A stretch of DNA of 64,000 bases. Origin: a virus (taxonomy: Duplodnaviria; Caudoviricetes). Where the stretch lies: the IMG/VR virus record IMGVR_UViG_3300013121_000020, positions 32,001-96,000 of that record; one strand, 5' to 3'. Position 1 is the stretch's first letter; the number at the start of each line of letters is the position of its first letter. Under the pieces are notes generated by a model, which made no database searches, was not told the DNA's origin, and saw only the letters and a program-made list of their open reading frames with translations. A program made the position numbers and the translations under genes. Shown in pieces: positions 28,503 through 44,122 of the stretch.

Positions 28503-29045
28503 GTGCCAGCCACAGTTATTATTAACAGACGGACTGGCACAGGAACATTAACTGATATTACGAATATAAATACAGTTGCAAACGCTGATGATACACACCA
28601 AACAGTAGCACTTGGAAGTTCAAATCCAGTAATGATACCACAAACTGGTGTTCATTACAGTTTCTGGGTATCAACACGATTAAATTGTACTGTAGCACCA
28701 TCTGGTACAATTAACAATATTCGATGGTATATGGATAGCGGCAATTCGCTTGGTTCTGGAATCACATGTAAGGCGCAAGATGCAGCACATTATGTTCAAG
28801 CAACTGGGACAGTTGGTGTTACGGGAACACAATTAACAACAGACAATCATGACGGGTTAACTGGCGCACCAGTTAACGCTTTTTCATTTACATCTGGATC
28901 ACCAAAATCTGTTCCTGGGTCAATTAGTGGCCCAGCAACAGGGAATTTTGGTAATTTCATGGTTTATCAGTTTGAAGTTGATGCTAATGCTGTGCCGGGA
29001 GTGTCTGGTACTGAAACGATCACGTGGGTATATGATGAAACGTAA
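28503..29045 (+). CDS. probable virion structural protein (Gly/Thr-rich beta sandwich)
   Basis: GTG start with GGAG RBS and upstream CAAATATA; Thr/Gly-rich; ends ITWVYDET. Confidence 0.65.
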   Translation: MPATVIINRRTGTGTLTDITNINTVANADDTHQTVALGSSNPVMIPQTGVHYSFWVSTRLNCTVAPSGTINNIRWYMDSGNSLGSGITCKAQDAAHYVQATGTVGVTGTQLTTDNHDGLTGAPVNAFSFTSGSPKSVPGSISGPATGNFGNFMVYQFEVDANAVPGVSGTETITWVYDET

Positions 29046-29056
29046 TGGAGGATAAC

Positions 29057-29593
29057 ATGGCACGATTTATTCCGTTTACCGTTTATGTAAGTGTTGTTCC
29101 AAGACAAGGTTATGGTAAACGTTTTGAACAAATTCGCGATATTCAAAAATTGTCTATATTAATATATGATGAAATATTATCAATCTCTGGTATACAAGTA
29201 GCACTCCCTGGTGGTGGACAATCATCACAATTGTCAGATATTAACCGTCGAGGTGGTCTTGGCGGATATGCTAATGGTACTGCAGTTAAATTGCAGATGG
29301 GAGAATCGCCAGCACAATTGGCATTAACTGGATTTTATGAAGTTAATGAAGCTAATTCACAACCGTGGAACGATTATCAACTAATATCTGGAGGTGAAAC
29401 ATTAACTGGTCCGGGACCACATCCGTGCGATGCGGTTCCGATAACTTCTTTTAATACGAATGTAAAATCTCTAAAAAATAGTTTCGAGTCAGCGATTACC
29501 GCAGCATTGCCAGCATCAATTGTGTGGAAAATTTTTAGAATTGATTTTGGTGGTGCTATATATGGTGATAGAGGCTTTCATTTTCCTAGATGA
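29057..29593 (+). CDS. hypothetical (probable virion) protein
   Basis: GGAGG RBS; start MARFIP. Confidence 0.65.
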   Translation: MARFIPFTVYVSVVPRQGYGKRFEQIRDIQKLSILIYDEILSISGIQVALPGGGQSSQLSDINRRGGLGGYANGTAVKLQMGESPAQLALTGFYEVNEANSQPWNDYQLISGGETLTGPGPHPCDAVPITSFNTNVKSLKNSFESAITAALPASIVWKIFRIDFGGAIYGDRGFHFPR

Positions 29594-31001
29594 TCAATTC
29601 AAGTTTTAAATGCCCTGCATCCCACATTCGCCGATAGCCGTTGTTAAACATGTTTTGTGCTTCGGTTAACAACGGATCGAAGGTTGCAAGAGTGTTGCCT
29701 AATTTATGTTTTTGACATTGTTGTCTTGATATAGTTTTTAATCCTTTACAATAAAAATATCCTGGTCTGGTTATTTTTCTTTCTATAAATCCGATAGCTC
29801 GATATCCAGTTGCATTTGTGTATCTTAGGTCAGCATATGTTATGATTTTTGATGGGTTGATAGTCTTAATAAAATGATTAAATAATTTTGACACTCCACC
29901 ACGCACGTTATAACCAATTTTAGTTGCCATACGTATTAGTTCATAACCTTCTTTATGCGGATTCCATGACGCTGCCATAACAATTTCATCATTGTCCATT
30001 AAACAAACGTTATACTTCGCATGGCGACCACTTTGCAGATGGTTGTGTTCATAAAAGGTAAATGGGCATATATCAGTTTGTATTTTAAAGGAACGTGCGT
30101 GTAATCTTTTTGATTTATGTTGGCGATTTTTGATTATTGATTCTACGATTTTAGTTTTATATACCCATTCATGTTCATAGAATTGTAAAAGTTGTATACC
30201 AACTTTTTGTGATAAAATCCATTTTGTTTGATGATACAGTCGCTCTTGAGTTGTCTCTATTCTATTAAATGAATGCCAAAACATACCATGGTATTCCACA
30301 CCTAATTTTAATTCTTTATCATAAACATCAATTTCGAATGGTGGTATGATGTTTCTAGAATTGATTATTGGATTATTAAATAGAGTTGATATATCATTGT
30401 GACCTTGTGATAAATTGCAATATGGACAGCCTGAGCCTCTAATATGGTTACTTGGTGTTTGTTGAAATATTTTATTGCACGTGTTGCATATAATATCAAT
30501 ATCTTTGAAATACGATGCATATACTACTTTTGAATAATTGAATCTATTATTGTGGCGATTTTTTGCTTTTTCAATAAATGAGATTGTTATTTCTTGCAGC
30601 TTGTTTTGCCAATGATTTTTTAAGCATTGTGATAATTTTTTCTTCCTTGATATTGTCATCGACTTTTTTATTCCTTTAATAATTAGTTCTCTGTTTTTAC
30701 GCCAGTTCAATTTTGATGATTCTGATAATTGTTGTTTTCTCTGTGATTGAATGATTTTCATTTTTTCGCTTTGTGCCTGTCGATGTTCATTGTTTGCCCA
30801 GTATGTTGATGAATATGATGAGATATATGATGATCTTTTTCTCATTCCTTCAGATATTGAACTGCGATTTATTTTGTGTTTCTTTATCCAATATCGAACA
30901 CTTGCTGGTTTTATACCTTCACGATTTGCTAATTCTCTAATTGAGCAAATCTCCAATTGGGTGATTAACCAGTCTCGATTATGGAAATCGCTAATGGCCA
31001 T
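29586..31001 (-). mobile_element. free-standing Hef-like homing-endonuclease gene: HTH/helical repeats + zinc ribbon + Vsr/DUF559-like nuclease + GNAT-like domain
   Basis: CxxC..H..G.GCPYC; EIDVY...GVEYHG.FWHS; NHLQ...ELIRMATK..VRGG.SKL..ITYADLRY..Y..IGF..GYRRMWDAG. AGGAG RBS; antisense to the structural operon. Confidence 0.7.
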
Positions 31002-31776
31002 ACTATCTCCTGCTGATTTACCTTCTATAATGAAGGTTCGCTCAGAACCAATGAAAAAATACGTGTTAAGTAAGCTTGGCTATCCGAACGTCGATGTAGA
31101 GATATCTGAAGATCAATGGGAGGTGATATGGAAAGTGGCTGGTGACTTTATTGCCCACTATTTTCCACGCGAGCAAAAACTTGCTGTTTTTTATACGTCA
31201 CCTTTAAAACCAACGTATCCATTTCCAAAAGATGCCTATTGGATTCAATCAGTAAATTGGGACCCAGTCACTTCAAGAATAGACGACGTGTTCGGCGCGG
31301 AAAGTTTTTTGTTTAACGTTGGGAATATTAGTGGAATCCAAAATATTTTACTTGACTATCATTTGTTGGCGGCATATCGAAAATTTTCACAAAAAATTCT
31401 TGGTACTGAAGGTCATTGGGAAGTTATTAATGAAGGAACCAGTACTGTTGAAGGTGATTCACTAAGTTCAAAAGATCAATTAATAAGATTATATCCAACA
31501 CCAAAAGGTGCATTTCCAGTAGTTGTGTTATATATTCCGGTGGTTAATTATTTTAGAAGTCCACAAGCGCGCCAACTTGCATACGATTTGATGCTAGCGG
31601 AAGCTAGAATTGCTGTTGGCAGTGCCAGAAGCAAAATTTCTGGTATGCCGACACCAGATGGCGGCGGTATTAATTATGATGGAAGTGATCTTGTTCAGAT
31701 GGGTGAACAGGCTAAAGAGAAAATTATAGAAACCGCAATGAATCTTGGTGAACCGTTAATGGTACACATGTGGTAA
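30994..31776 (+). CDS. neck/head-completion protein (T4 gp13-like)
   Basis: KKYVL.KLGYP.VDVEI.EDQ, G..RSK..G.P.P.GG.....G..L, P-rich end; position before the gp14/gp15-like genes. Confidence 0.8.
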   Translation: MAILSPADLPSIMKVRSEPMKKYVLSKLGYPNVDVEISEDQWEVIWKVAGDFIAHYFPREQKLAVFYTSPLKPTYPFPKDAYWIQSVNWDPVTSRIDDVFGAESFLFNVGNISGIQNILLDYHLLAAYRKFSQKILGTEGHWEVINEGTSTVEGDSLSSKDQLIRLYPTPKGAFPVVVLYIPVVNYFRSPQARQLAYDLMLAEARIAVGSARSKISGMPTPDGGGINYDGSDLVQMGEQAKEKIIETAMNLGEPLMVHMW

Positions 31777-31780
31777 TGAT

Positions 31781-33004
31781 ATGAAATTGAATATGATACA
31801 TGGTGGCGTACTAAACGAAAATTTTTATATATATGATAATCGCTCGCCAGACGAAGATCCAACAATTTATAGTATAGGTGACACAGAACTGCCCGGAGGT
31901 GGTGGCGACTTAGCAACCATGATGGTTGGAGACAGAGAATTACCGCTAATACGCTTTAATCAAGACCTATTCGATTATAGTGAAGATGCTGTTTATGAAG
32001 TTCTTAGAATCTTAATGAATAAATTATTAAAATTAAAAATTAAAAAATTTGATATAGATGACCATAATGCACATGAGTTTGTATACAGTGCAATAAATAG
32101 ATTAGAGAGTGAAGGATGGATTATAAAAACTCCTGATGATTATATAATTGCAATTGGTAACTCACTTCATAAGAATGACCCATTTGCGGCTCCAACGCTT
32201 GCTTCTAAATATTATGAAAAACGTGGTATTATGCCTGATGATATTCCAGGGGCTGATTATTATGATTTACATGCGTTGTCATCGAAATTGGGGCAACCAA
32301 GTGTTGGGCTGCGAGATAAGTTGGGGAAACAATTATCTAAACCATTTTCAGCATACAGTTGGAAGAAAAAACGGTCTGAACATAAAAATGAAGCTGGTAC
32401 AACATTAAGTAAAGCAGTTATTTACCACCAACGTCATTTTAATGGAAAACGATGGCCAGAATTAGAGGCGGCGTTTTTACAACGTGCGAACACTTATTCA
32501 TCACCAGCTGGTGATTATACTCGTCCTAGAATGTCGTTGTTTACTTATATGAACAATTTGCGAGAAGAATGGCCTGAGGGAGAGAAATTAGCGGAATCGC
32601 TTGTTAGTTTTATTGAACGAAATTATGGTAAGAATCATAAATATTATAAGAGATATATTAATTATGGTAACGATAGTTTTATTGAATTTATGAAACGTAG
32701 ACCTAATTTGGCAACACGACTTATTAGACCATTAATAAAACATATTGCAGAAACATGTGCAGCAATGGTGGCTAATTATAATTCACTTTTTGAGAGCGAT
32801 GGCGGATTTAACAATGTAGATAGAACTGTTAAATTAGTGGTTGATCGTATAGTAACTAATAAAGATGTTGATGCTTTGAATCAGATGCATGGTATGTTGT
32901 TTGGTAGAATGGATACTATAATAAAATTAGTAACATCTTTAAAAGATTATTTTGATTTTGATTTATTTGAAACCACAATACAAAATGTTCTTCGGAATCG
33001 CTAA
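31781..33004 (+). CDS. hypothetical protein, possible internal head protein
   Basis: 407 aa; N-terminus MKLNMIHGGVLNE ends in L-x-E. Confidence 0.55.
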   Translation: MKLNMIHGGVLNENFYIYDNRSPDEDPTIYSIGDTELPGGGGDLATMMVGDRELPLIRFNQDLFDYSEDAVYEVLRILMNKLLKLKIKKFDIDDHNAHEFVYSAINRLESEGWIIKTPDDYIIAIGNSLHKNDPFAAPTLASKYYEKRGIMPDDIPGADYYDLHALSSKLGQPSVGLRDKLGKQLSKPFSAYSWKKKRSEHKNEAGTTLSKAVIYHQRHFNGKRWPELEAAFLQRANTYSSPAGDYTRPRMSLFTYMNNLREEWPEGEKLAESLVSFIERNYGKNHKYYKRYINYGNDSFIEFMKRRPNLATRLIRPLIKHIAETCAAMVANYNSLFESDGGFNNVDRTVKLVVDRIVTNKDVDALNQMHGMLFGRMDTIIKLVTSLKDYFDFDLFETTIQNVLRNR

Positions 33005-33008
33005 ATAA

Positions 33009-33497
33009 TTATGATGCCCAATTTGGTAATGGTGGAAGGACTCCACCTTCTGCCGGGAAAGAACCTTCTGGTGTGTATGGGTTGACTGGTGGTGCGTCTG
33101 TCAATTGAAAATCTGGATGTGGGCAATAACCCATGCTATTGGTGTGACATTTATCATACGACTCTTCGACTGGCAATTCAGTAGAAGCCAATTCTTTTAA
33201 CATTTTAAAATAATCTGGATGTGTTCCTTGCGGGCATTCTGGTTTTAATGGTGGTAACACAAACCATTTCTGACGATATCCGCCGCGATTGAAATTAGCT
33301 CCGAATTTTATAAATGAGCCTGGAATCGCCGCTAACGCTACTTCTACATCAACTAAAGCACTACCACAGCCATTTCGTGCCATATATGATGATAACACTC
33401 TTGATGAAATAGATGATGTTGGTTCACAGCCTGGCACAAGAATTTTGTTGCCTGGCATGATTTCTAATTGCAATGCGATAGTGTGTGTCCATCCCAT
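33009..33497 (-). CDS. hypothetical Pro-rich protein
   Basis: 162 aa ORF coupled to 33500..33940. Confidence 0.6.
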   Translation of the reverse strand: MGWTHTIALQLEIMPGNKILVPGCEPTSSISSRVLSSYMARNGCGSALVDVEVALAAIPGSFIKFGANFNRGGYRQKWFVLPPLKPECPQGTHPDYFKMLKELASTELPVEESYDKCHTNSMGYCPHPDFQLTDAPPVNPYTPEGSFPAEGGVLPPLPNWAS

Positions 33498-33499
33498 AT

Positions 33500-33940
33500 T
33501 TAATTTTTGAATTGTAATTGTTCTTGTATAAAATTAATACATACATTCATAAAATGTGGGTTTGCCATGTCTATATTTATTGTGTTGAAGTGATCGGTCG
33601 AGTTTGTTGAAATCTCTTGCGTTATTGATGTTAAGAATAGTGCGCTTAAGATATTACTGTCGATGTCAAAATCAAGCGATATTGAATGTAATATAATGTT
33701 ATGCGCCAGTGGTTTGGTTTCTTCAAATGAGTGTGGTTTTGTGGCGGTAACACACTCACGCCCTAAAAGTTGATTGCTGTCATAAATCATGAATCCAGCG
33801 TGCGGGCCAGTTATTGTTTCTTTATGCAATAGGGTCTTATATTTATAATCAAGTGTTTTAGTTATTTCTTGCAATAGATCGTTTGCTACTTTAAGTGCTA
33901 TTGCTATTTCTAAATCGCGTGCTGATTTTAATTTGTTCAT
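33500..33940 (-). CDS. hypothetical protein
   Basis: 146 aa ORF; GTATTT motif upstream. Confidence 0.6.
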   Translation of the reverse strand: MNKLKSARDLEIAIALKVANDLLQEITKTLDYKYKTLLHKETITGPHAGFMIYDSNQLLGRECVTATKPHSFEETKPLAHNIILHSISLDFDIDSNILSALFLTSITQEISTNSTDHFNTINIDMANPHFMNVCINFIQEQLQFKN

Positions 33941-33988
33941 AGTGGTTTATGTTAAAAATACATTAAATATCTTTAAATTGTGATAATT

Positions 33989-34627
33989 ATGATTCATAAA
34001 TTTGGTTATGATTCTGATGCGGTTCCAGAGGGTGATAAATTTGATTTATCACACCCAGACTTTCGTTCTGATGTTGAGCAACGTCACACACCTCTTGCAT
34101 TACACGATTCAAATAGTAATGATCTAAAACTTGCACGCGCTAAAGCTAATGAAATTATTAATGTATCTGGTGCTGAAGTTAAGGTTTATATTAGAACTGA
34201 GAATGCCGATTATGATCAAGTATGGGATGCTGATCCAGATCCGACATATTGGAACAATTTTACAATTAAAGCGTTTTTTAAACCACAACCATTGGAAACA
34301 GAATTGAAAAAGTGGGGGGTAGATGTAGCAAACAAAACAGAAGTTGTGTTTAGTCATCAAAATCTCTTCCAACTTCTTGGAGAGAGAATGTTACGCGCTG
34401 GAGATGTTATCCAATTACCATATAATGCAGCAACTAATGCTGTTGCACCTAAAAATTATAGAGTTATTAATAGTACTCCAAGCGGTAATTTTCGTTATAA
34501 TTGGTTATATTTTACATGTCAGGTTGAGGTCTTGACTGCTGATATTACAGTTCGTCCTCCAGATGATTCACCAATAGCTGTTGATGAACAAATTGGTAAT
34601 GGGGGTGTATATCGTGAAAGTCTCTGA
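33989..34627 (+). CDS. neck/head-closure protein (T4 gp14-like)
   Basis: E.I..SG..V.VY.R.....D.VW..D, L.KWG.D, RAGDVI.LP; synteny with gp13- and gp15-like genes. Confidence 0.65.
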   Translation: MIHKFGYDSDAVPEGDKFDLSHPDFRSDVEQRHTPLALHDSNSNDLKLARAKANEIINVSGAEVKVYIRTENADYDQVWDADPDPTYWNNFTIKAFFKPQPLETELKKWGVDVANKTEVVFSHQNLFQLLGERMLRAGDVIQLPYNAATNAVAPKNYRVINSTPSGNFRYNWLYFTCQVEVLTADITVRPPDDSPIAVDEQIGNGGVYRESL

Positions 34628-34898
34628 GCAATTGAAACCAATTAGACTTGGTGCAAATATTGCAACACACTCTTTTTTGTCTAGAATAGCGTCAGCGTTG
34701 CAAAAGAAACTAGCTGAAGAAGCTGGCATTGAGGTTGTGTTTATTGGTAAGTCAACGAGCAAGAATGAAATATCAGCAACTTTAACTGGTCAAGTTATTG
34801 ATCTTGATGAACAAAAAATTGACGATGTTAAAAAGAGAGTAGAAGCGATTATGACAAATTTAAAGAATCCAACTAATTTTGTTGAGTTACTTGAGTAG
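34614..34898 (+). CDS. hypothetical protein
   Basis: ORF between the gp14- and gp15-like genes. Confidence 0.55.
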   Translation: MKVSEQLKPIRLGANIATHSFLSRIASALQKKLAEEAGIEVVFIGKSTSKNEISATLTGQVIDLDEQKIDDVKKRVEAIMTNLKNPTNFVELLE

Positions 34899-34912
34899 TT
34901 TGGAGATGAACT

Positions 34913-35776
34913 GTGCCGATTCATGATTTTAATGCTGATATTAAATTACCCAATTCTCAAAGTCTGCCGCATGGGGCGGCAGAACTTCCTGCTGCACGTC
35001 AATTAAGTCACGCAGAAGGTGGTCGTATTAAGTTTGATGGATCTGACTCCATGTCATATCCATATCAACTTGAAGAATTTTTACAACCGGGTTTTCGTGC
35101 GCTTGATGATGCTATGAGGCAGTATTGGTCTGGTATCCGTGTTCCTACTAAAGATTCATATCGTTTTATGAGAGTAAAGGTGGCTGGTGGTGATAAAAGT
35201 CTGTTGTTGTGGGCTGATGATTTGAAGGAAGGTCGTGCAAGATTACCACTTGCAGCGTTGTCACGTGAGTCTCATGAATTTAATCCAGAGAAATTTTCAC
35301 CTGCTTATCACGCTATGACTGCGCGATATATCACAACTCGCGGCAACTTAGCTGCTAAGGTTTATCGTCCTGTTCCATTTTTGGTTGAATACAATTTAAC
35401 TATTTGGGCAGAACATAAGCGTGATGCTGAGTATATCCTATATCAAATTTTAACAAGATATAATCCACTTGCTGAATTTAGGATGTTTGATGGGAAACTT
35501 GAAGGCAATGTTCAATTACATTACGGTGGGTCACATGATGCTAGTGATAAAGAAGCTGGATATGATCAACACGCAAATGTACGATATGAGATTTCTACAA
35601 CAGCGGAAGCATGGCTACCTTTACCAGAAAAGATTGTACCAACTGTGATTGGCCGTATGACGGTACTTAAAGAAAGAGTTGGCGAGATCGCTACCGATCT
35701 ATTTTTAGCTTCTCGTGGATCTGGTAGATTTTCTGAGCCTATTCAAGACATAAATAAAGCTGAAAATGAAATATAA
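34913..35776 (+). CDS. tail terminator / sheath stabiliser (T4 gp15-like)
   Basis: LPLAAL.R..., PVPF..EY.L.IW......A..IL.QIL.R.NP; located upstream of the sheath. Confidence 0.7.
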   Translation: MPIHDFNADIKLPNSQSLPHGAAELPAARQLSHAEGGRIKFDGSDSMSYPYQLEEFLQPGFRALDDAMRQYWSGIRVPTKDSYRFMRVKVAGGDKSLLLWADDLKEGRARLPLAALSRESHEFNPEKFSPAYHAMTARYITTRGNLAAKVYRPVPFLVEYNLTIWAEHKRDAEYILYQILTRYNPLAEFRMFDGKLEGNVQLHYGGSHDASDKEAGYDQHANVRYEISTTAEAWLPLPEKIVPTVIGRMTVLKERVGEIATDLFLASRGSGRFSEPIQDINKAENEI

Positions 35777-35784
35777 TGGAGTTA

Positions 35785-36018
35785 ATGATGGCTAGTAAGA
35801 AGTCTGTGGTTGTTCGGATTTATAATCGATCGAAACAAATGATACCATTGCAATTACGAACTCCTGGTAGCGATTTCTTTACCAATGAACAACAAGTTAG
35901 AATCGATCCTGGTAAAGATGTGGTTTTGCCAAAGTCACATTTGCGCATGGAACAAGTTGAAAATTTGCAAAAACGGCGGATGATTCAAGTTATTTATGAC
36001 AGTGAAGAAGAGTCATAA
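35785..36018 (+). CDS. small pre-sheath virion protein
   Basis: Small gene between the gp15-like gene and the sheath; paralog of 20007..20231. Confidence 0.65.
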   Translation: MMASKKSVVVRIYNRSKQMIPLQLRTPGSDFFTNEQQVRIDPGKDVVLPKSHLRMEQVENLQKRRMIQVIYDSEEES

Positions 36019-37514
36019 ATTAATTTGATGTTCCCAGCATCCCAGAAACGTCGATATCCATTAGCAAACATGTTAGCTGATTCTGACATTGTTTGATCGA
36101 AATTTATCAATAATTTTTTCAACTTATGTTTTTGACATTGTAATCTAGATATAATTTTACCATTTAAATGGTAAAAATATCCTGGTGGTGTAGTATGTGA
36201 TTTTACAAATCCCATTTGTTGATATACATTACCAGTTGAATAACGTAAATCGGCGAATGTTATGACTGTTTGTGGTTTAATTGCACAAATTGCGGTTTTT
36301 AACAATCTTGCTGCACCCCCTCTAATAACATAACCAATTTTGGTTGCTAATCTCATAATTTCTATACTATTATTGCTGTGGCGATTAAATGACATGGCTA
36401 CTACTGGTTCATTGTTATCAACAAGGCACCAACACCATTTTGAGTTTCGGTGTCCGGCTAGGTGGTTTGCGTTGAAAAAAGCTTCTGCTTCTTTATCACG
36501 CATTTGAGCAACACCTAATTTTCTAGCATGTAATTTTTTAGACAAACCAAGTCGATTGGTTATCATTGATATGACAATATCTTGTTTTAATCGCCATTCA
36601 AAATCACAAAATTGCAATAATCTAATTCCTGCTTGCCGTGCTTTGATGAACTTTTCTTGATGGCGATACTTTTCTAATTTAGTTTCTGAACGATTGTATG
36701 AGTGCCAATATATTCCATGATATTCAATTCCTAATTTATGATTTGGTAAATAAATATCTATCTCAAATGGTGTAATGATTGATCTATCATTTAGAATTGG
36801 TGTGTTATTACAAATACCACTAACCAATTCGTAAATTTCACGTTGTCCAGCAGAAGTCGATGATGGTGCACAATGTGGACATCGACTACCACGCAAATGA
36901 GTTATCGGTAACTGAGTGAATGTTGCAGTGCAATTATTACATGTAATTTCGATTGGTTTCGTTGTGGTTGTATATTGCGATGCTGAATAATCAAATTTTC
37001 CGTCATGAATTTGACTAGCTTTTGATATGAAGTCTGATGTGCGTTGTTGCTGGTTGTTTATCCGTTGGCTTTCCCAATAATTTTTAGACCAATCTGAAAT
37101 TTTTTGTCGATATTCATCCGTATGCCTGTGTATTAAATGCTTTGTGCGTATCGTTGGATCAGTCCATGATTTCTTTACGGCTGTTGATATTTTGTGTGAA
37201 ATTGTTTTGTTGTGTACTGCATTGAAATAGTTTGGATCTAAATGTAATGCTGCAAATTTTTGTTTATATTCTTTTGTTTTATATAATGGATTAGATCCGG
37301 CAATAGCGTCGATTGCCGGTTTTCGACATTTATAGCACGACCATGGGTCAGTAGTGTTTTTTCTAAATTTCCAATAATTATTTAAACTTATTGATACTAT
37401 TTGTTTACAAGTGTGGCAACACACTAGTAAGGTGATGTTTGTTGTCTTAGCAAATATAGATGGGTAGTGAATCACTTGAGGGTCGGCAGCAATAGTCGCT
37501 TTGCGGGTGGGCAT
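35994..37514 (-). mobile_element. free-standing Hef-like homing-endonuclease gene (paralog of 29586..31001)
   Basis: CxxC motifs, FEIDIY...GIEYHG.YWHS nuclease core, NHLAG...EIMRLATK..IRGGAARL..FADLRYS.G.VY..GF..GYRRFWDAG. Start MPTRKAT with GGAG RBS. Confidence 0.7.
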
Positions 37515-37534
37515 GACTACTTTATTGCTCCAAG

Positions 37535-37542
37535 CAAAAGTA
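37535..37542 (+). promoter_or_regulatory. candidate late-promoter motif CAAA-NN-TA (sheath example)
   Basis: Same motif upstream of starts at 10519, 27953, 28466, 42248, 42942, 45468 (+) and 20260 (-). Confidence 0.5.
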
Positions 37543-37567
37543 TAGTAACTTACGAGGATAAATACAT

Positions 37568-40414
37568 ATGGCAGTTTATCTTTCACCCGGTGTATTCCCG
37601 CGTGAGATCGATCTCAGCGTACTGCCGACAGCAGTTGGTCCATTGCGTCCCGCCTTTATCGGGACGGCTAAGAAGGGACCACTAAACCAAGCTGTGCTTG
37701 TGACAACATCACAACAGGCAATCGACACATTTGGTGAACCATTTCCATCATCCCATCTCATGTACGCTGTGTTAGCATACCTTGAAGAAGGTAATCAATG
37801 CTACGTTATGCGGGTTGGGGTTGAATGCGAAACTGGCCAACCAGAAGAACTATCATCAATCTGTATAGACACAAGTGGTGGGCGAGGTTCTGGTTGGGGC
37901 AGGATTCCCCTCTTTACTGGGATCGATTTTGGTCGTCTCAATTTTAGAGAAATCACGACTGAAAGCCCAGTCAGTTTCCATGCGGCAAGCGTCAGTGATA
38001 TTACATATAACGATGTGGATGTTTCAACAACGCAAGGGGCAACTACCGCAACATTGAGTGTTACTGGGACTTATAGTGGAGATATTGAAGATTCGTTTGT
38101 GATGGTGATTACTGGTCCGCCAACTGTGTCGGCGGCTGATAAGATTGAAGGCGCAACATTCCAAATTATTCGCAATTCTGATGGTGAAATTGTTGCTAGT
38201 GGGAATTTGAATGACCCAGATTATAACGGCACATCGCAATTGATCGTTCTTGATAATGGTCTTAGTGTGCAAGTTATAGTCACCGCTGGTGTTTTGGATG
38301 AGAATGATACATTCACATTCAAAGTTCACCCAGATAATAGAGTGTTTTCGATTTCGGTTGAAGGTGGTGTGGCTAACTCATATACGATGCCAACTGCCAC
38401 TTACACAACCGCAGCAGCATTTAAAACCGCATTTAACGCATTATTAAGTAGTGAAGATTACCTCATGATCGAGTATACTCTCGATGATGGGGTGACTGTG
38501 ATTCCACAGGTGCGAACAACAGTCGCTGGTGAACGAATTCAATTGATGACAACGTCTGCGTTTGCGATTGAAGTTGGTTCGCAGCGATATGCGTGGGATA
38601 TCCCACGTTCATATCTGCTTGGGGTTGATGCTGGCCCATATGACATTTCGACTCAAAATAACAGACTAAAAGTGAATGTTATTGGAGACGAAACGACAAA
38701 AACTGTTGAGTTTAATGTTCCGGTCGGTGTTGGTCAAACCGCAACAAACATTGCTCAATCGATTGATGTGGCTGGTGTTGTGGACGGTGAGGTTTTGTGG
38801 GATTCGTTTGCATTAACTGTCCCAGGTGGATCGCAGCATGTAGTGATGGTAACAGTTATTGACCATCAATTTGACACTTTACAATTGATGGCCAATTACT
38901 CCAATTTGAAGACGTTACGTTTTGCTGAAGAATTAAACATTCCGTTCCCTTATAAGCGTTCGTATCGTGGGTTTAGTGATAATCGATTGACTTTACCTTC
39001 ATCTGGTGCGGTCACAGCTAGCACTCCACTTTCGTGTGAAGTTGATCCGCTAAGTAGTGATTGTGCATCGGATACTGCATACTTCCAAAACATTGTTGGT
39101 TGGCTGGTAGCACCAAGCCCTGGGACTTGGATTGATGGATATTCAGCTACTTTGGAAGTGTTCACTGAATCGAGTGCTCCGAGTGGTGTGTATAAGATTA
39201 CTATAAAGGATGCTAATAGGGCGGTTGTTGAAGTAATTGAAAACATTACTTTCGATAAACGAGACGATCGATACATTGCCAATGTTATCAATCCTGGAAC
39301 GAAATATGGTGGCACAAGTGGCAATGTTTTTGTGAACTGGGAAGAACGACCAGCATATCTCGACAATGATGTTAATTTAACATCATTTGCTGTGCGATAT
39401 CCATCTCAGTTTTCGGAGAAACAATATGAAGGACAAGCTGATGGTATTCCAACTGATCCAGCTTATTCTTCAGAATTAGATTCTGTGGTGATTGGTAATC
39501 CAGCAACCTCAAGCGGTTTATACGCATTCCAGAACCCTGAATCTATTGATATTAATATTTTGTGTACTCCAGGTTTTTCTACTGGAGCAGTTATTGGCAC
39601 AGCTTTGCAAATGTGTGAAAGCCGTGGAGATGTTCTTTATATTGTTGATCCTCCGTTTGGTTTAAGACCACAACAAGTAGTTGATTGGCACAATGGTATG
39701 CTGTTGTCCGATCTTAAATCGGCAATTAATTCAAGTTATGGATCATTGTATTGGGGATGGTTAAGAACTTTCGACCAATTTTCGAATAGTGAAATTTGGG
39801 TTCCACCATCTGGGCATGTTGCAGCAGTATTCAGTAGAACTGCTCGCGACACAGAACAATGGTTTGCACCTGCTGGTTTGCGACGTGGAAGACTGTTAAC
39901 TGCCTTGGATGTTGAATATAGCCCAACACAAGGTGAACGTGATCTGTTGTATGGATCTGGAAATTCTGTGAATCCAATTGTAAAGTTCCCGCAAGACGGG
40001 ATTACAGTGTGGGGTCAACGAACGCTCCAGAGAACACAATCAGCACTTGATAGAGTTAGTGTTCGAATGTTGTTGATACATTTGAAGAAGAATTTGATTC
40101 AATTGTTACGAAACTTCATTTTCGAACCAAACGATAGAATCTTGTGGAAACAAGTGCTGGCATCTGTCAATCCGTTCTTGTCTGATATACAGGCTCGTCG
40201 TGGCTTGCAAGCGTTTAATGTGATATGTGACGAGTCTAATAACACTCGTGAACGGATTGATCGCAACGAATTGTGGATATCAGTGTTCTTTAAACCAACG
40301 AAGACAGTTGAATTCGTTGTGTTGAATTTGGTGGCATTAAGAACTGGAGCCAGCTTTGCTGCTGAAGAAGTGTTGGCTGCTGGTGGTGTTGTGCCACTAG
40401 CAACTGCTACATAA
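37568..40414 (+). CDS. contractile tail sheath protein (gp18-like)
   Basis: YLSPGVFPREIDLS, FIG.A.KGP, FG.P, WVPPSG, WFAPAG..RG, NPI..F...G..VWGQRT, RV.VR.L, FEPND, CDESNNT, P.KT.EF. Confidence 0.96.
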   Translation: MAVYLSPGVFPREIDLSVLPTAVGPLRPAFIGTAKKGPLNQAVLVTTSQQAIDTFGEPFPSSHLMYAVLAYLEEGNQCYVMRVGVECETGQPEELSSICIDTSGGRGSGWGRIPLFTGIDFGRLNFREITTESPVSFHAASVSDITYNDVDVSTTQGATTATLSVTGTYSGDIEDSFVMVITGPPTVSAADKIEGATFQIIRNSDGEIVASGNLNDPDYNGTSQLIVLDNGLSVQVIVTAGVLDENDTFTFKVHPDNRVFSISVEGGVANSYTMPTATYTTAAAFKTAFNALLSSEDYLMIEYTLDDGVTVIPQVRTTVAGERIQLMTTSAFAIEVGSQRYAWDIPRSYLLGVDAGPYDISTQNNRLKVNVIGDETTKTVEFNVPVGVGQTATNIAQSIDVAGVVDGEVLWDSFALTVPGGSQHVVMVTVIDHQFDTLQLMANYSNLKTLRFAEELNIPFPYKRSYRGFSDNRLTLPSSGAVTASTPLSCEVDPLSSDCASDTAYFQNIVGWLVAPSPGTWIDGYSATLEVFTESSAPSGVYKITIKDANRAVVEVIENITFDKRDDRYIANVINPGTKYGGTSGNVFVNWEERPAYLDNDVNLTSFAVRYPSQFSEKQYEGQADGIPTDPAYSSELDSVVIGNPATSSGLYAFQNPESIDINILCTPGFSTGAVIGTALQMCESRGDVLYIVDPPFGLRPQQVVDWHNGMLLSDLKSAINSSYGSLYWGWLRTFDQFSNSEIWVPPSGHVAAVFSRTARDTEQWFAPAGLRRGRLLTALDVEYSPTQGERDLLYGSGNSVNPIVKFPQDGITVWGQRTLQRTQSALDRVSVRMLLIHLKKNLIQLLRNFIFEPNDRILWKQVLASVNPFLSDIQARRGLQAFNVICDESNNTRERIDRNELWISVFFKPTKTVEFVVLNLVALRTGASFAAEEVLAAGGVVPLATAT

Positions 40415-40423
40415 TTGTTATTA

Positions 40424-40449
40424 GTGTGGGGGACATATGTCCCCCACAC
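40424..40449. terminator. perfect 26-bp palindrome between convergent genes (likely bidirectional terminator)
   Basis: GTGTGGGGGACAT|ATGTCCCCCACAC between the sheath (+) and deaminase (-) stop codons. Confidence 0.75.
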
Positions 40450-40451
40450 AT

Positions 40452-40877
40452 TTATCGTCGCATTAATTTAGAACCGGGCAATTCTAGAAAGCCAACTTCT
40501 GAAGAGAAATAGAAATTTTTACACCCGACTGCTGATAGCAATTCAAAACATGGTCTGCATGGTTTGCTTAGACGTAATTTACCAAGTTTGTTTAGTCTAA
40601 TGTTAATAATCTCAAAAAAGCCGTCTTCAAGAATTCCTCTTGCGCGTTTATATGCCCATATTTCAGCGTGAAATTTTGGGACAAATGTAATGTCATTTTT
40701 GCTGCTGTGATATCCATAATGTAATGGTGGTTCTAGACGTCCATTAGTTGCCCATTCTACAATTTGATTGTGTTGCACTATGAACGCATAGTGGATAAAT
40801 CCTTTGATACGTTCCGGGTGGTGTTTCAGTTTGGTTTGAGCGGTTTTAATAGCAGAATATAATAAATTCTTCTTCAT
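40452..40877 (-). CDS. zinc-dependent cytidine/deoxycytidylate deaminase-like protein
   Basis: HAE and SKPCRPC motifs. Confidence 0.8.
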   Translation of the reverse strand: MKKNLLYSAIKTAQTKLKHHPERIKGFIHYAFIVQHNQIVEWATNGRLEPPLHYGYHSSKNDITFVPKFHAEIWAYKRARGILEDGFFEIINIRLNKLGKLRLSKPCRPCFELLSAVGCKNFYFSSEVGFLELPGSKLMRR

Positions 40878-40921
40878 AACACTATGTGGCAGTGTACTAA
40901 TGTTGATAAATATTGATGTGA

Positions 40922-42235
40922 TTAATGTGATGGTTCATATATAAAACACAATTTTGGGCCTCCCCATTTTTTGATATATCCAAATTTTTCAGCGAATTGG
41001 CTTTCTGTGAGTTTTAAATTTACAGCACGATTATAAAGTGTCTTTTTATGCATGACAAAGCCGTCTTTATCAACATACCAATAATCTGGATTTGTTTGAT
41101 GGTGGAGTTTGAAATTTGCTGCTTTATAAACAGCGCCAGTATGACCAACAGTTGTGTCAGCAAATGCTATAACTGCTTTATAGTTTTTAACAAGTTTTGC
41201 TAACCACCAACTAAGCAGATTGTGTTTGTGATAATTTGGATGTACACATAGTCGTGCTAATTCGACGGTGTTGGGTGGAAATTGGTGTGCCATGTTTTGT
41301 CGCGGGAGTGGACTAAATCGACTCACAGCGATTAATTTATTTTCTAGCCATAGTCCAAAATCAGTTCCTCCTCTAGAGCTTGTTAAATAATGATATTTAG
41401 ATAAAAATTTATTCGATTCTTCTCTGCTTAATTGATTACTATACAATTGAGATAATTTGAATTGTGTTGTTTCAATTGCGAGATTGAGTTTTAATTTAAG
41501 ACGATCTAACACACGATCTTTGGTTGCAAATTCATGTTCCCAAATATACATGATTTCATATTCTGGAAAATATCGTTGTATATATGTGAATTTTGAACGA
41601 TCATTACGAATAGCTTTTGGTAATGAATGCCAATAATCTCCTTGACATTCGATTAAGATTGATCGGGGTTTATGTGGAATTAAACAATCGAATGAATAAA
41701 ATCCGATAGTTGTGTTTGGACCTTCTTTGTGATGTTCTACTCCGAGATTTGTTAAATATTCATATAAAATTGTCTGTAGTGATGATGTTTTTTGTCTGCT
41801 TAAATTGTTTAATGCGGCGATTCGATATGAGTTGTCTAACCATCTTTGTCGTAGTCCGATTGATATTTTTTCTCGTGTTTCTGGAGTTGCAAGAGCTGTT
41901 TTTACATTATTTATTATTTTTGTTCTGTATTCTAGAATTGTCCATAATTTTAATGTTCTAATTGATTGTTGTTTTTTATATTCATCAGTTGTATTTGCCG
42001 CGATACTTGCTGCGGTGATTTTCGCTCTAAAATCTGATCGTTTCCATAAAGTTTTGCTTTGTTCGGAACGGCGTTCTGAAGAGCCACTATATTTTCCTGT
42101 CACACCAGCTAACTTTGCTGCACATTTTTGACATAAATATACGCCATTCTTCTTTATGTTGGCTTTGTAAGTGTCGCGGCGTACTAAACCAGACCACCCA
42201 CAGTTACAATTGGCGTGTTCACGTGGTCTAGCCAT
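40922..42235 (-). mobile_element. antisense fusion gene: zinc ribbon + helical repeats + Vsr/DUF559-like nuclease + Mom-like GNAT domain
   Basis: YSFDCLI..ILIECQGDYWHS..D..K..IWE nuclease; FLSKYHYL..GL..LIAV..VELARLCV..FADTTVGHTGAVYKAANF Mom-family pattern. Start MARPREH with GGAG RBS. Confidence 0.72.
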
Positions 42236-42304
42236 ACGATTCTCCAGCAAAACTATATTGAATAGCATGTTGCTATCTAAAAATACATTTGCCGAGGGTT
42301 TCAA

Positions 42305-42886
42305 ATGCCCGGCTTTAATATTGCACCATATGGTGGTGGTTACTCAGTACAAGGGCCTTCTAACGTCCTTGAAACTCGGCGCAAGCACCGTTGGGTGTTT
42401 GAGACGATTGGCAGAGGTACTGGTAGCTTTTCTCAGACAGAATTACTAGTGTTGCAGTCTGCATCTCGTCCGAGTTTTAAATTCGAAGAACCTGAGATGC
42501 ATCACAATCAAGAAGTATCCCGTTTTGCTGGTAAGCAAGATTGGGAACCGATTACTATGACGTGGTATGATGTTCAACAAGATCCTGACGTTTCGCGTGG
42601 GATCTATATGTGGATTGAGACTGTTGTTAACATGTTCTCATTACAGGTTGCTCATCCTAGATTATATAAAAAGACTGCTGTTCTTTTGATGATTGATGGT
42701 GTTGGTCAAACTACTGAACGATGGACGATGCTTGGGACATGGCCATCAACTTGCAATTGGCAAGAATTAGATTACACTTCCACTGATATTCAAACATTGG
42801 AAGCGACAATGAGATATGATCGTGCGGTGCGTGATTGCGTTGCTCCGATTTCTCCGCAACCAATTTCGCCAAACTGCCCAGTTTGA
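42305..42886 (+). CDS. tail tube protein (gp19-like), copy 1
   Basis: E.RRKHRW, ASRP.F.FEE, FAGK..WEPIT.T.YD, E.W...G.WP.....LDY, MRYDRA. Confidence 0.88.
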   Translation: MPGFNIAPYGGGYSVQGPSNVLETRRKHRWVFETIGRGTGSFSQTELLVLQSASRPSFKFEEPEMHHNQEVSRFAGKQDWEPITMTWYDVQQDPDVSRGIYMWIETVVNMFSLQVAHPRLYKKTAVLLMIDGVGQTTERWTMLGTWPSTCNWQELDYTSTDIQTLEATMRYDRAVRDCVAPISPQPISPNCPV

Positions 42887-42894
42887 TAATTAGT

Positions 42895-42940
42895 AGAAGG
42901 CAATGGGGTACTATAACACCCATTGCCTTCTTGCTTATTT
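42895..42940 (+). terminator. probable intrinsic terminator after tail tube gene
   Basis: 13-bp stem AGAAGGCAATGGG / CCCATTGCCTTCT followed by TGCTTATTT. Confidence 0.7.
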
Positions 42941-42986
42941 GCAAATATAAGCAGTGTTTGCAATTCGCTTGATTGTGGGAGGCGCA

Positions 42987-43577
42987 ATGCCTGGTTTTAG
43001 AATACCAGTCCCAAATTATTGTGGAGTTACTGATTTTGGCGATGGGCCAAGCAATACTGTTGAAACAGCACGTAGACATCGTTATTCTCTAGAGGTCTTA
43101 GAGCCGCTTGGTGATAAATACACAGGATTGTTATTATTTGGATATAAATGTACAAGACCGACAATTGAATTTGATGAGATGGCGATTCATAATGGTCAAG
43201 ATGAAATTTTTCGTCCTGGTAAACAACATTGGAAACCAGTTGATTTCAGTTTTTATGAAAAGCTTGATGGCGACAATGTTTTATCTAATCAAGCGGCTGA
43301 ATTAATTTATGGGTGGTGGGGCTTCACTATGGTTAATGTGTGGAGTTCATTACATCAAGAACCAGCAAAATATTTAAAAAATATTCAACTTGATTTGTTA
43401 GATGGTTCTGGAAAAACAGTATGGGTATATGAGTTGTTAGATTCTTGGCCATCACGTATATCACCAAGTCAACTAGATTATACTGATACTGCGATTGCTG
43501 ATATTACTGTTACTATTAGATATTCTAAAGCACGAGAAGGTCAATTTCCTTTTGGCATAGACACCTCGGCTCTTTGA
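42987..43577 (+). CDS. tail tube-like protein, copy 2
   Basis: GGAGG RBS; MPGF start; RRHRY, TRP.IEFDE, PGK..W.PV, WP.....LDY, IRY. Confidence 0.8.
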   Translation: MPGFRIPVPNYCGVTDFGDGPSNTVETARRHRYSLEVLEPLGDKYTGLLLFGYKCTRPTIEFDEMAIHNGQDEIFRPGKQHWKPVDFSFYEKLDGDNVLSNQAAELIYGWWGFTMVNVWSSLHQEPAKYLKNIQLDLLDGSGKTVWVYELLDSWPSRISPSQLDYTDTAIADITVTIRYSKAREGQFPFGIDTSAL

Positions 43578-43591
43578 ATTTGGAGGGTGGT

Positions 43592-44122
43592 ATGCCTGGA
43601 TTTATGATAGATAGGTTTGGCGGAGAGAGAATTCATACTCAACCATTGGGTGGTAAACGACAATATTATTATAATTATTTTTGGGAAATTGAAGACTTAT
43701 TTGAAACGAAATTATTTAGCACTACTGATGCACTTATTTCGTTGAAAGATGTCACATTACCAACATTTACTGTTAGTAAAGAAACATATGTTGGTAGCAC
43801 TTTAGAGTACAAGTTTGCTAAAAATGTGACATGGGAAGATATTAAGGTGAGTTGGTATGATTCAGAGGGTCTTTTACCGTTTGTGAAAGGTTGGAGAGAA
43901 TCGGTATGGACACCAAACACTGGTTTACAAATGTCAAATGAATATAAGAAAATTTCAATAATACATCATTTTTTACCAACTGGAAAAAGAAATAATAAAT
44001 GGCGTCTTATTAATAGTTGGCCATCTCAGATTAGAAATGGTGAATTGACATATACAAGCAGTGAGATAAAATTGGTTGAAGTTACCATAACCTATGATTG
44101 GGCTGAAGAAACGCCCGGTTAG
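43592..44122 (+). CDS. tail tube-like protein, copy 3 (possible tube initiator)
   Basis: GGAGG RBS; MPGF start; LP.F, FAK.V.W.DI.V.WYD, W.L..SWP.....LTY, VTITYDWA. Confidence 0.8.
   Translation: MPGFMIDRFGGERIHTQPLGGKRQYYYNYFWEIEDLFETKLFSTTDALISLKDVTLPTFTVSKETYVGSTLEYKFAKNVTWEDIKVSWYDSEGLLPFVKGWRESVWTPNTGLQMSNEYKKISIIHHFLPTGKRNNKWRLINSWPSQIRNGELTYTSSEIKLVEVTITYDWAEETPG

Follow-up and report, generated by a model that had tools for sequence, protein, structure and literature searches.

Three minus-strand genes in a 64,000-nucleotide stretch of viral DNA (the window, bases 32001 to 96000 of an IMG/VR virus record with a length of 354 kb and a completeness of ~98%) are very probably Hef-like, free-standing homing endonuclease genes that have inserted at intergenic junctions of the neck-tail module of their phage. 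The source is an uncultured T4-like jumbo phage with a genome of 354 kb. In their longest forms, the open reading frames (ORFs) lie at 29586-31001 (copy 1), 35994-37586 (copy 2), and 40922-42304 (copy 3). As an earlier sequence-only reading of the window had described, all three are present and each is head-to-head with a virion gene, namely, a gp13-like neck gene, the tail sheath gene, and a tail tube gene, respectively. The same reading had placed the starts of copies 2 and 3 at 37514 and 42235; these starts are likely the true ones, because the N-terminal extensions of the longer ORFs (24 residues in copy 2 and 23 in copy 3) are disordered in AlphaFold2 (AF2) models, with predicted local distance difference test (pLDDT) scores of <50, while the mean pLDDT is 89.7 for copy 2 and 87.0 for copy 3. 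The predicted Hef-like homing endonucleases are 471 amino acids long for copy 1 (P0001, 29586-31001), 506 for copy 2 (P0002 from M25, 35994-37514), and 437 for copy 3 (P0003 from M24, 40922-42235, of a Mom-proximal subfamily).

Over their full length, the three proteins match phrog_3339 ("homing endonuclease") and PHROG 559, with E values of 4e-72, 6e-91, and 2e-25 for copies 1, 2, and 3, respectively. Copy 3 also matches phrog_1384 ("Mom-like") and, in Pfam, both Mom (E = 1.6e-17) and REase_MTES_1575 (E = 9e-6), and its score of 64 to 67 bits against Pfam Mom (PF25680) is above the curated cutoff of 27.1. Copies 1 and 2 fall below this cutoff when searched singly, and their link to Mom is made via hhalign to the copy-3 subfamily and, for copy 2, via a Foldseek match to Mom. 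These two copies had been called close paralogs; they do belong to one subfamily but are only moderately close, at 41 to 46% identity. The copy-1/2 and copy-3 subfamilies are homologous end to end, with an hhalign E value of 8.7e-42 from disjoint alignments. A value of 6e-99 was discarded because the alignments behind it had sequences in common, and the comparison was rerun on disjoint sets.

Since a single-sequence phmmer search of the PDB with copy 3 gave nothing useful, we used profiles for the PDB comparison. The copy-3 subfamily profile matched Mu Mom (8bv8, E = 3e-11) and the catalytic domain of I-Bth0305I (3r3p, E = 1.4e-10), and the copy-1/2 subfamily profile matched 3r3p (E = 7e-6) and GCN5-type GNATs (E of ~1e-3). 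In VIA-align comparisons of the copy 3 AF2 model, residues 281 to 460 aligned with Mom 8bv8 (Z = 14.8, 148 residues) and residues 174 to 275 with 3r3p (Z = 13.2, root mean square deviation of 2.2, 92 of 98 residues), and Escherichia coli Vsr (1cw0) gave a Z value of 11.7. The best Foldseek match of this model was Mom (E = 5e-9), and the copy 2 model matched the GNAT 1yvk (E = 6e-6) and then, at rank 2 to 3, Mom (E = 7e-6). Profiles and models thus bear out the domain order proposed in the sequence-only reading (zinc ribbon or helical repeats, a Vsr-type nuclease, and a GNAT/Mom domain); its C-terminal GNAT fold is recovered in the models of copies 2 and 3, and the Mom motifs that it listed for copy 3 (HYL, ELARL, and AD..GH.G.VY.A.NF) are all found in this protein that passes the Pfam Mom cutoff. 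Profile comparison and predicted structure mark the C-terminal domain as genuinely homologous to Mu Mom and assign the three genes, which are free-standing, to the Hef-like branch of the EDxHD/Vsr-like family.

The N-terminal modules differ among the copies (zinc ribbon, MerR-like helix-turn-helix [HTH], and treble-clef finger), and helical repeats of ~35 residues are common to the N-terminal parts of all three. In copy 1, the DNA-binding modules span residues 1 to 193 (30423-31001, with boundaries carried over from the copy 2 model by alignment) and include a weak MerR-type HTH at residues 19 to 52, helical repeats, and a treble-clef zinc finger (DUF4379) at residues 152 to 196. The AF2 secondary structure of copy 2 contains a zinc ribbon, helical repeats, and a treble-clef zinc finger in residues 25 to 245 of P0002 (36852-37514), with a HypA-like zinc site at residues 200 to 244. 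Residues 24 to 173 of P0003 (41786-42235) in copy 3 hold a zinc ribbon, with a weak L33-like match, and helical W..YR.K repeats. The Vsr/EDxHD nuclease follows at approximately residues 194 to 293 in copy 1 (30123-30422), at approximately residues 246 to 345 in copy 2 (36552-36851), and at residues 174 to 275 in copy 3 (41480-41785), and its catalytic triad is intact in all three (D225/E236/H243, D277/E288/H295, and D206/E219/H226, respectively). At the position of I-Bth0305I N208 and Vsr H64, copies 1 and 2 have His and copy 3 has Gln, and the equivalent of I-Bth0305I D222, D235 in copy 3, aligns in the copy-3 subfamily only. The GNAT/Mom-like domain occupies approximately residues 294 to 471 of copy 1 (29589-30122; H321, R357, S371, D391, R393, and Y400), residues 346 to 530 of copy 2 (35997-36551; H375, R412, D446, R448, and Y455), and residues 281 to 460 of copy 3 (40925-41464; H305, Y306, R351, S365, D383, and Y393).

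We mapped the proteins of the window onto 80 loci from uncultured phages that were found by a sheath protein search and are 55 to 77% identical in the sheath protein, and junctions were counted in the loci having both flanks. The junction that holds copy 1 lies between a conserved gene (29045-29593, plus strand) and the gp13-like gene (30994-31776, plus strand). It is empty, with the conserved gene directly adjoining gp13, in 25 of 32 loci, and it contains Hef-like genes in one locus (L001) and other inserts in six. Between the conserved small gene to the left of copy 2 (35776-36018, plus strand) and the sheath gene (37568-40414, plus strand), 64 of 68 loci are empty, with gaps of ~30 to 300 bp, and a Hef-like gene is found in none. 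The junction between the sheath gene and the first of three tail tube paralogs (42305-42886, plus strand) is empty in 46 of 66 loci, with Hef-like genes in five and other inserts in 15. Across all 80 loci, there are 23 Hef-like genes in 14 loci, at varying positions and on either strand; in the closest relative, L001, a copy 55% identical to copy 3 matches it in both position and orientation. Empty sites predominate at all three junctions, which contradicts fixation of the genes and upholds the earlier proposal that they are selfish elements. The presence/absence pattern is that expected of free-standing homing endonuclease genes, and the three genes are inserted mobile genes.

We also followed the active-site residues of both domains through 273 family proteins aligned with MAFFT (122 of the copy-1/2 subfamily and 151 of the copy-3 subfamily), with Mom positions assigned at the level of sequence, by HMMER alignment to 8bv8. 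The nuclease Asp is present in all 273 proteins, the Glu in 265 with Asp in the other eight, and the His in 270. In double-stranded DNA, Mom modifies adenine at N6 with glycine taken from Gly-tRNA; its active site comprises H58, Y59, R111, S124, D149, R151, and Y159, of which R111, S124, D149, and R151 are needed and S124A is dead (PMC13219725). The equivalents of H58 and Y159 are each kept in 272 of the 273 proteins, that of R111 in 271, and that of D149 in 261, with Asn in 11, and the S124 equivalent is Ser or Thr in 240. At the R151 position, 109 of 122 copy-1/2 proteins have Arg, whereas 131 of 151 copy-3 proteins have Thr. In this alignment mapping, copies 1, 2, and 3 keep six, five, and six of the seven Mom positions, respectively: like Mu Mom, all three have equivalents of H58, R111, D149, and Y159, copies 1 and 3 that of S124, and copies 1 and 2 that of R151, the replacements being Leu for Y59 in copies 1 and 2, Ala426 for S124 in copy 2, and Thr385 for R151 in copy 3.

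The Ser124 equivalent is absent from 30 of the 122 copy-1/2 proteins, and the nuclease Asp, Glu, and His are kept in all 122. The position aligned with Trp48, a residue of the Mom dimer interface, is not Trp in the family consensus. A glycine-rich loop of the copy-1/2 subfamily, found neither in Mom nor in the copy-3 subfamily, aligns with the coenzyme A (CoA)-binding motif A of GCN5. A complex prediction for two copies of the copy 3 nuclease-plus-Mom core scored 0.00, which gives no verdict and counts as evidence neither way. Because most of the Mom active-site residues are kept, the Mom-like domain may still be an enzyme; the alignment points to strong constraint on its pocket, in keeping with a role in base binding or catalysis that has been retained.

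Architecture, homology, residue conservation, and insertion polymorphism are the observations from which we infer cleavage, its target, homing, and any modification. As homing endonucleases, these proteins would use their variable N-terminal modules (zinc ribbons, HTH, and 35-residue helical repeats) to attach to a long site that lies within or next to the neighboring conserved gene on the DNA of a co-infecting relative without the insert. The Vsr-like domain would cut this target, and recombinational repair would then copy the endonuclease gene and any cargo, for example a small deaminase, into the junction. The Mom-like domain most likely would still bind a flipped base in the target, and it may also have kept the ability to transfer an acyl or an aminoacyl group.

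The candidate cargo is a 141-amino-acid gene of TadA/dCMP-deaminase fold with an HAE...PCxxC motif (40452-40877, minus strand), which shares the sheath-tube insert with copy 3 and is located downstream of that copy. The gene has no counterpart in any of the 80 related loci, and its homologues in other phages occur in accessory regions near tRNA-related genes, not beside Hef-like genes. The absence of Hef-like genes from the regions of these homologues rules out the deaminase as a regular partner of such genes; here, it may be cargo that moved together with the homing gene.

Several considerations weigh against the homing interpretation. Sequence alone cannot show cleavage, a target site, or a homing event, and the relatives, with sheath proteins of 55 to 77% identity, are too divergent for recent transfer or tracts of co-conversion to be traced. 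All three copies lie antisense to the operon of late structural genes and have almost no room for promoters, and their expression is only putative; a scan for sigma-70-type promoters found 48 sites versus 54.6 expected and was uninformative. In addition, a plain homing model leaves the conserved Mom active site unexplained.

The Mom-like domain can be read in other ways. It is conceivable, at somewhat short of an even chance, that it is no longer a transferase and now acts within the endonuclease as a module for DNA binding, base flipping, or oligomerization. Homing endonucleases commonly take up folds that bind DNA. The DNA cleft of Mom is positively charged, the protein has an HTH-like insertion, and its binding has been modeled with a flipped adenine; the losses of Ser124 (in copy 2 and in one-fourth of the copy-1/2 subfamily) and of Arg151 (replaced by Thr in the copy-3 subfamily) fit relaxed catalytic constraint. 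However, the near-invariance of H58, R111, D149, and Y159 across subfamilies that are ~20% identical exceeds the usual need of a scaffold, and the copy-1/2 subfamily keeps its motif A-like glycine-rich loop aligned to the CoA-binding loop of GCN5. The nearly invariant active-site equivalents would suit a site-specific cut-and-protect arrangement, the idea put forward in the sequence-only reading, in which an adenine inside the endonuclease's own target on the carrier genome would be acylated or aminoacylated by the Mom-like domain, making the carrier immune, and unmodified alleles of co-infecting relatives would be cut, a reading that we consider unlikely. Its appeal lies also in the fusion, as the domain is always joined to a nuclease and never free-standing in the 354-kb genome, and in the chemistry of Mu Mom, with its Gly-tRNA donor and adenine N6 target (PMC13219725). 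Against it stand the Ala of copy 2 at a position where the S124A change abolishes Mom catalysis (PMC13219725), the 30 of 122 copy-1/2 proteins that lack Ser and the 11 that have Asn for Asp149, all with the nuclease triad kept, the Thr that replaces the essential Arg151 in copy 3 and most of its subfamily, and the loss of the dimer residue Trp48. The nuclease is thus not strictly dependent on a Mom-type Ser, which weighs against obligatory coupling of cutting and protection, at least in the copy-1/2 subfamily. Sandegren and colleagues reportedly found in 2005 that Hef cut the DNA of its own phage in vitro, a result that would agree with the carrier being protected by modification and not by the sequence of the target. 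Were this doubtful arrangement to hold, the homing gene could enter any allele without a resistant target sequence and would be a homing/restriction-modification hybrid; the two subfamilies may differ in donor, with aminoacyl-tRNA serving the Mom-like copy-3 type and acyl-CoA serving the copy-1/2 type with its glycine-rich loop.

We regard it as improbable that the protein is a single-chain restriction-modification unit, in which the Mom domain marks adenines throughout the phage genome and unmodified DNA of the host or of rivals is attacked at short motifs by the nuclease. This is how Iyer et al. read the Mom-restriction endonuclease (REase) fusions of jumbo phages in 2021, predicting that momylation shields the phage and that the nuclease attacks other DNA (PMC7824862), and both active sites seem intact in most copies; the two domains share one chain, and a self-blocking modification is putative. 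Yet this genome has nine copies, each with different long N-terminal recognition modules, where a single protective modifier would suffice genome-wide; precise insertion at conserved-gene junctions together with presence/absence polymorphism is the signature of free-standing homing genes, and U5 Hef is reported as a site-specific homing enzyme (PMC2988022). Because of the empty-site data, we favor the homing description over a Mom-REase restriction-modification system.

Homing endonucleases of this type are common in phages. Copy 3 gave 3,476 matches to metagenomic cluster representatives at an E value of ≤1e-3, and homologues of copy 2 occur at 1,100 places in 466 isolate phage records, with 10 to 12 places each in Campylobacter phages. 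These are annotated as "Hef-like homing endonuclease," "homing endonuclease," or "putative nuclease/acetyltransferase protein," and tblastn matches include the Hef-like homing endonucleases of Campylobacter, Bacillus AR9/PBS1, Acinetobacter, Dickeya, and jumbo phages. A megablast search of the 14-kb region against isolate phages gave no matches. Hef-type enzymes were assigned to the Vsr-like EDxHD family by Taylor et al. in 2011 (PMC3239194), U5 hef cleaves nrdB according to Edgell et al. in 2010 (PMC2988022), and phage LIMEstone1 has four Hef-like genes, of which F-LimVIII is beside the tail tube gene (PMC3296691). The copies in the window share full-length homology, including the C-terminal domain, with U5 Hef and the Hef-like group (Campylobacter CP30A/CP81, Dickeya LIMEstone F-LimIII/VII/VIII/X, Acinetobacter Stupor/AM101, Bacillus AR9/PBS1, and PA5oct-like phages), in which free-standing genes beside conserved phage genes and several copies per genome are likewise usual. 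They differ from this group in that identity is at most ~40%, their phage is an uncultured jumbo phage of 354 kb, all three are antisense and head-to-head with virion genes, and they are known from sequence. With I-Bth0305I (3r3p), they share the nuclease fold, the positions of the catalytic Asp, His, and Glu, and N-terminal DNA-binding repeats ahead of the nuclease, but that enzyme is intron-encoded and ends at the nuclease domain, without a GNAT/Mom domain.

Mu Mom (8bv8, PF25680) has the same GNAT fold with the Mom-type C-terminal elaboration but is a stand-alone dimeric enzyme, whereas the copies are fused to a nuclease and do not keep Trp48; the Ala of copy 2, the Thr of copy 3, and the CoA-GNAT-like glycine-rich loop of the copy-1/2 subfamily set them further apart from it. 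The REase-Mom fusions that Iyer et al. described in jumbo phages, with five in PA5oct, match the copies in architecture and in kind of phage, and the word "homing" is absent from their text (PMC7824862). Both the family and the restrict-and-protect reading of the nuclease-Mom fusion are therefore already published (PMC3239194, PMC7824862). Our literature search returned no paper combining "Hef-like" with "Mom-like" or "momylation," and the descriptions "Hef-like homing endonuclease" and "Mom-REase restriction-modification fusion," both of which are applied to these proteins, have apparently not been connected in the literature.

Among the nine family members in the 354-kb record, one further copy immediately follows the gene for the major head protein, and another is next to a helicase gene; a stand-alone Mom is found nowhere in the record. 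A paralogue on the minus strand (G000:C1:141846-143444, corresponding to L082:3047-4645) has two Endo VII-like modules (phrog_1035 and phrog_3322) and a Mom-like domain, without a Vsr-like nuclease, so that the Mom-like module is joined to at least two unrelated nuclease types within one genome.

The virion genes that face the three copies were identified as follows. The sheath gene matches phrog_23 (E = 3e-85), and the tube gene matches phrog_4542 (E = 1e-24). The gp13-like gene has no PHROG or Pfam match, and its identity is based on an Atlas score of 0.98 to T4 gp13 clusters and on synteny, as it is upstream of gp14-like and gp15-like genes; relatives align to its long ORF from residue 82. 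Start-to-start gaps are 53 bp between copy 2 and the sheath gene and 69 bp between copy 3 and the tube gene. The start codons of copy 1 and gp13 overlap within the palindrome ATGGCCAT (30994-31001), which places the ribosome-binding region of each gene inside the coding sequence of the other. An 11-bp GC-rich strong hairpin (40424-40449) follows the sheath stop codon, and the three tail tube paralogs (193, 207, and 182 amino acids) stand in a row at 42305-44122, a triplet that is kept in most relatives.

The region between gp13 and the gp14-like gene (31781-33940) differs from that of relatives. Its 407-amino-acid gene (31781-33004, plus strand) and 146-amino-acid gene (33500-33940, minus strand) lack homologues in the 80 loci and match no family, and a conserved 162-amino-acid gene (33009-33497) is on the minus strand here versus the plus strand in 53 relatives, which points to a local inversion. 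In L001 (2515-5778), gp13 is split into two ORFs exactly at GAESYLF|NVGNISG, and a similar split is seen in L071 (4454-6770). The N-terminal half in L001 carries a 155-amino-acid extension starting with CFPG, and the C-terminal half is preceded by an extension of ~107 amino acids with a SprT-like HExxH motif (E = 7.5e-5, below the cutoff). A Hef-like gene lies between these halves on the opposite strand, and an Rfam search, which found no intron there, likewise gave no group I intron and no other family in the window and in loci L001 and L071. By analogy, the split gp13 resembles the "fractured gene" arrangement first tied to the EDxHD endonuclease family, and its junction is unlike that of a canonical intein.

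Taken by themselves, the three genes are further copies of a common selfish phage gene, and the window alone adds little to what is known of them. Across the family, however, thousands of phage genes encode a homing nuclease fused to a Mom homologue that has most of the Mom active-site residues, and the role of this homologue is a testable question. If the Mom half proves to be a site-directed DNA modifier, it would represent a new self-immunity mechanism for homing elements and, possibly, a tool for targeted adenine modification.

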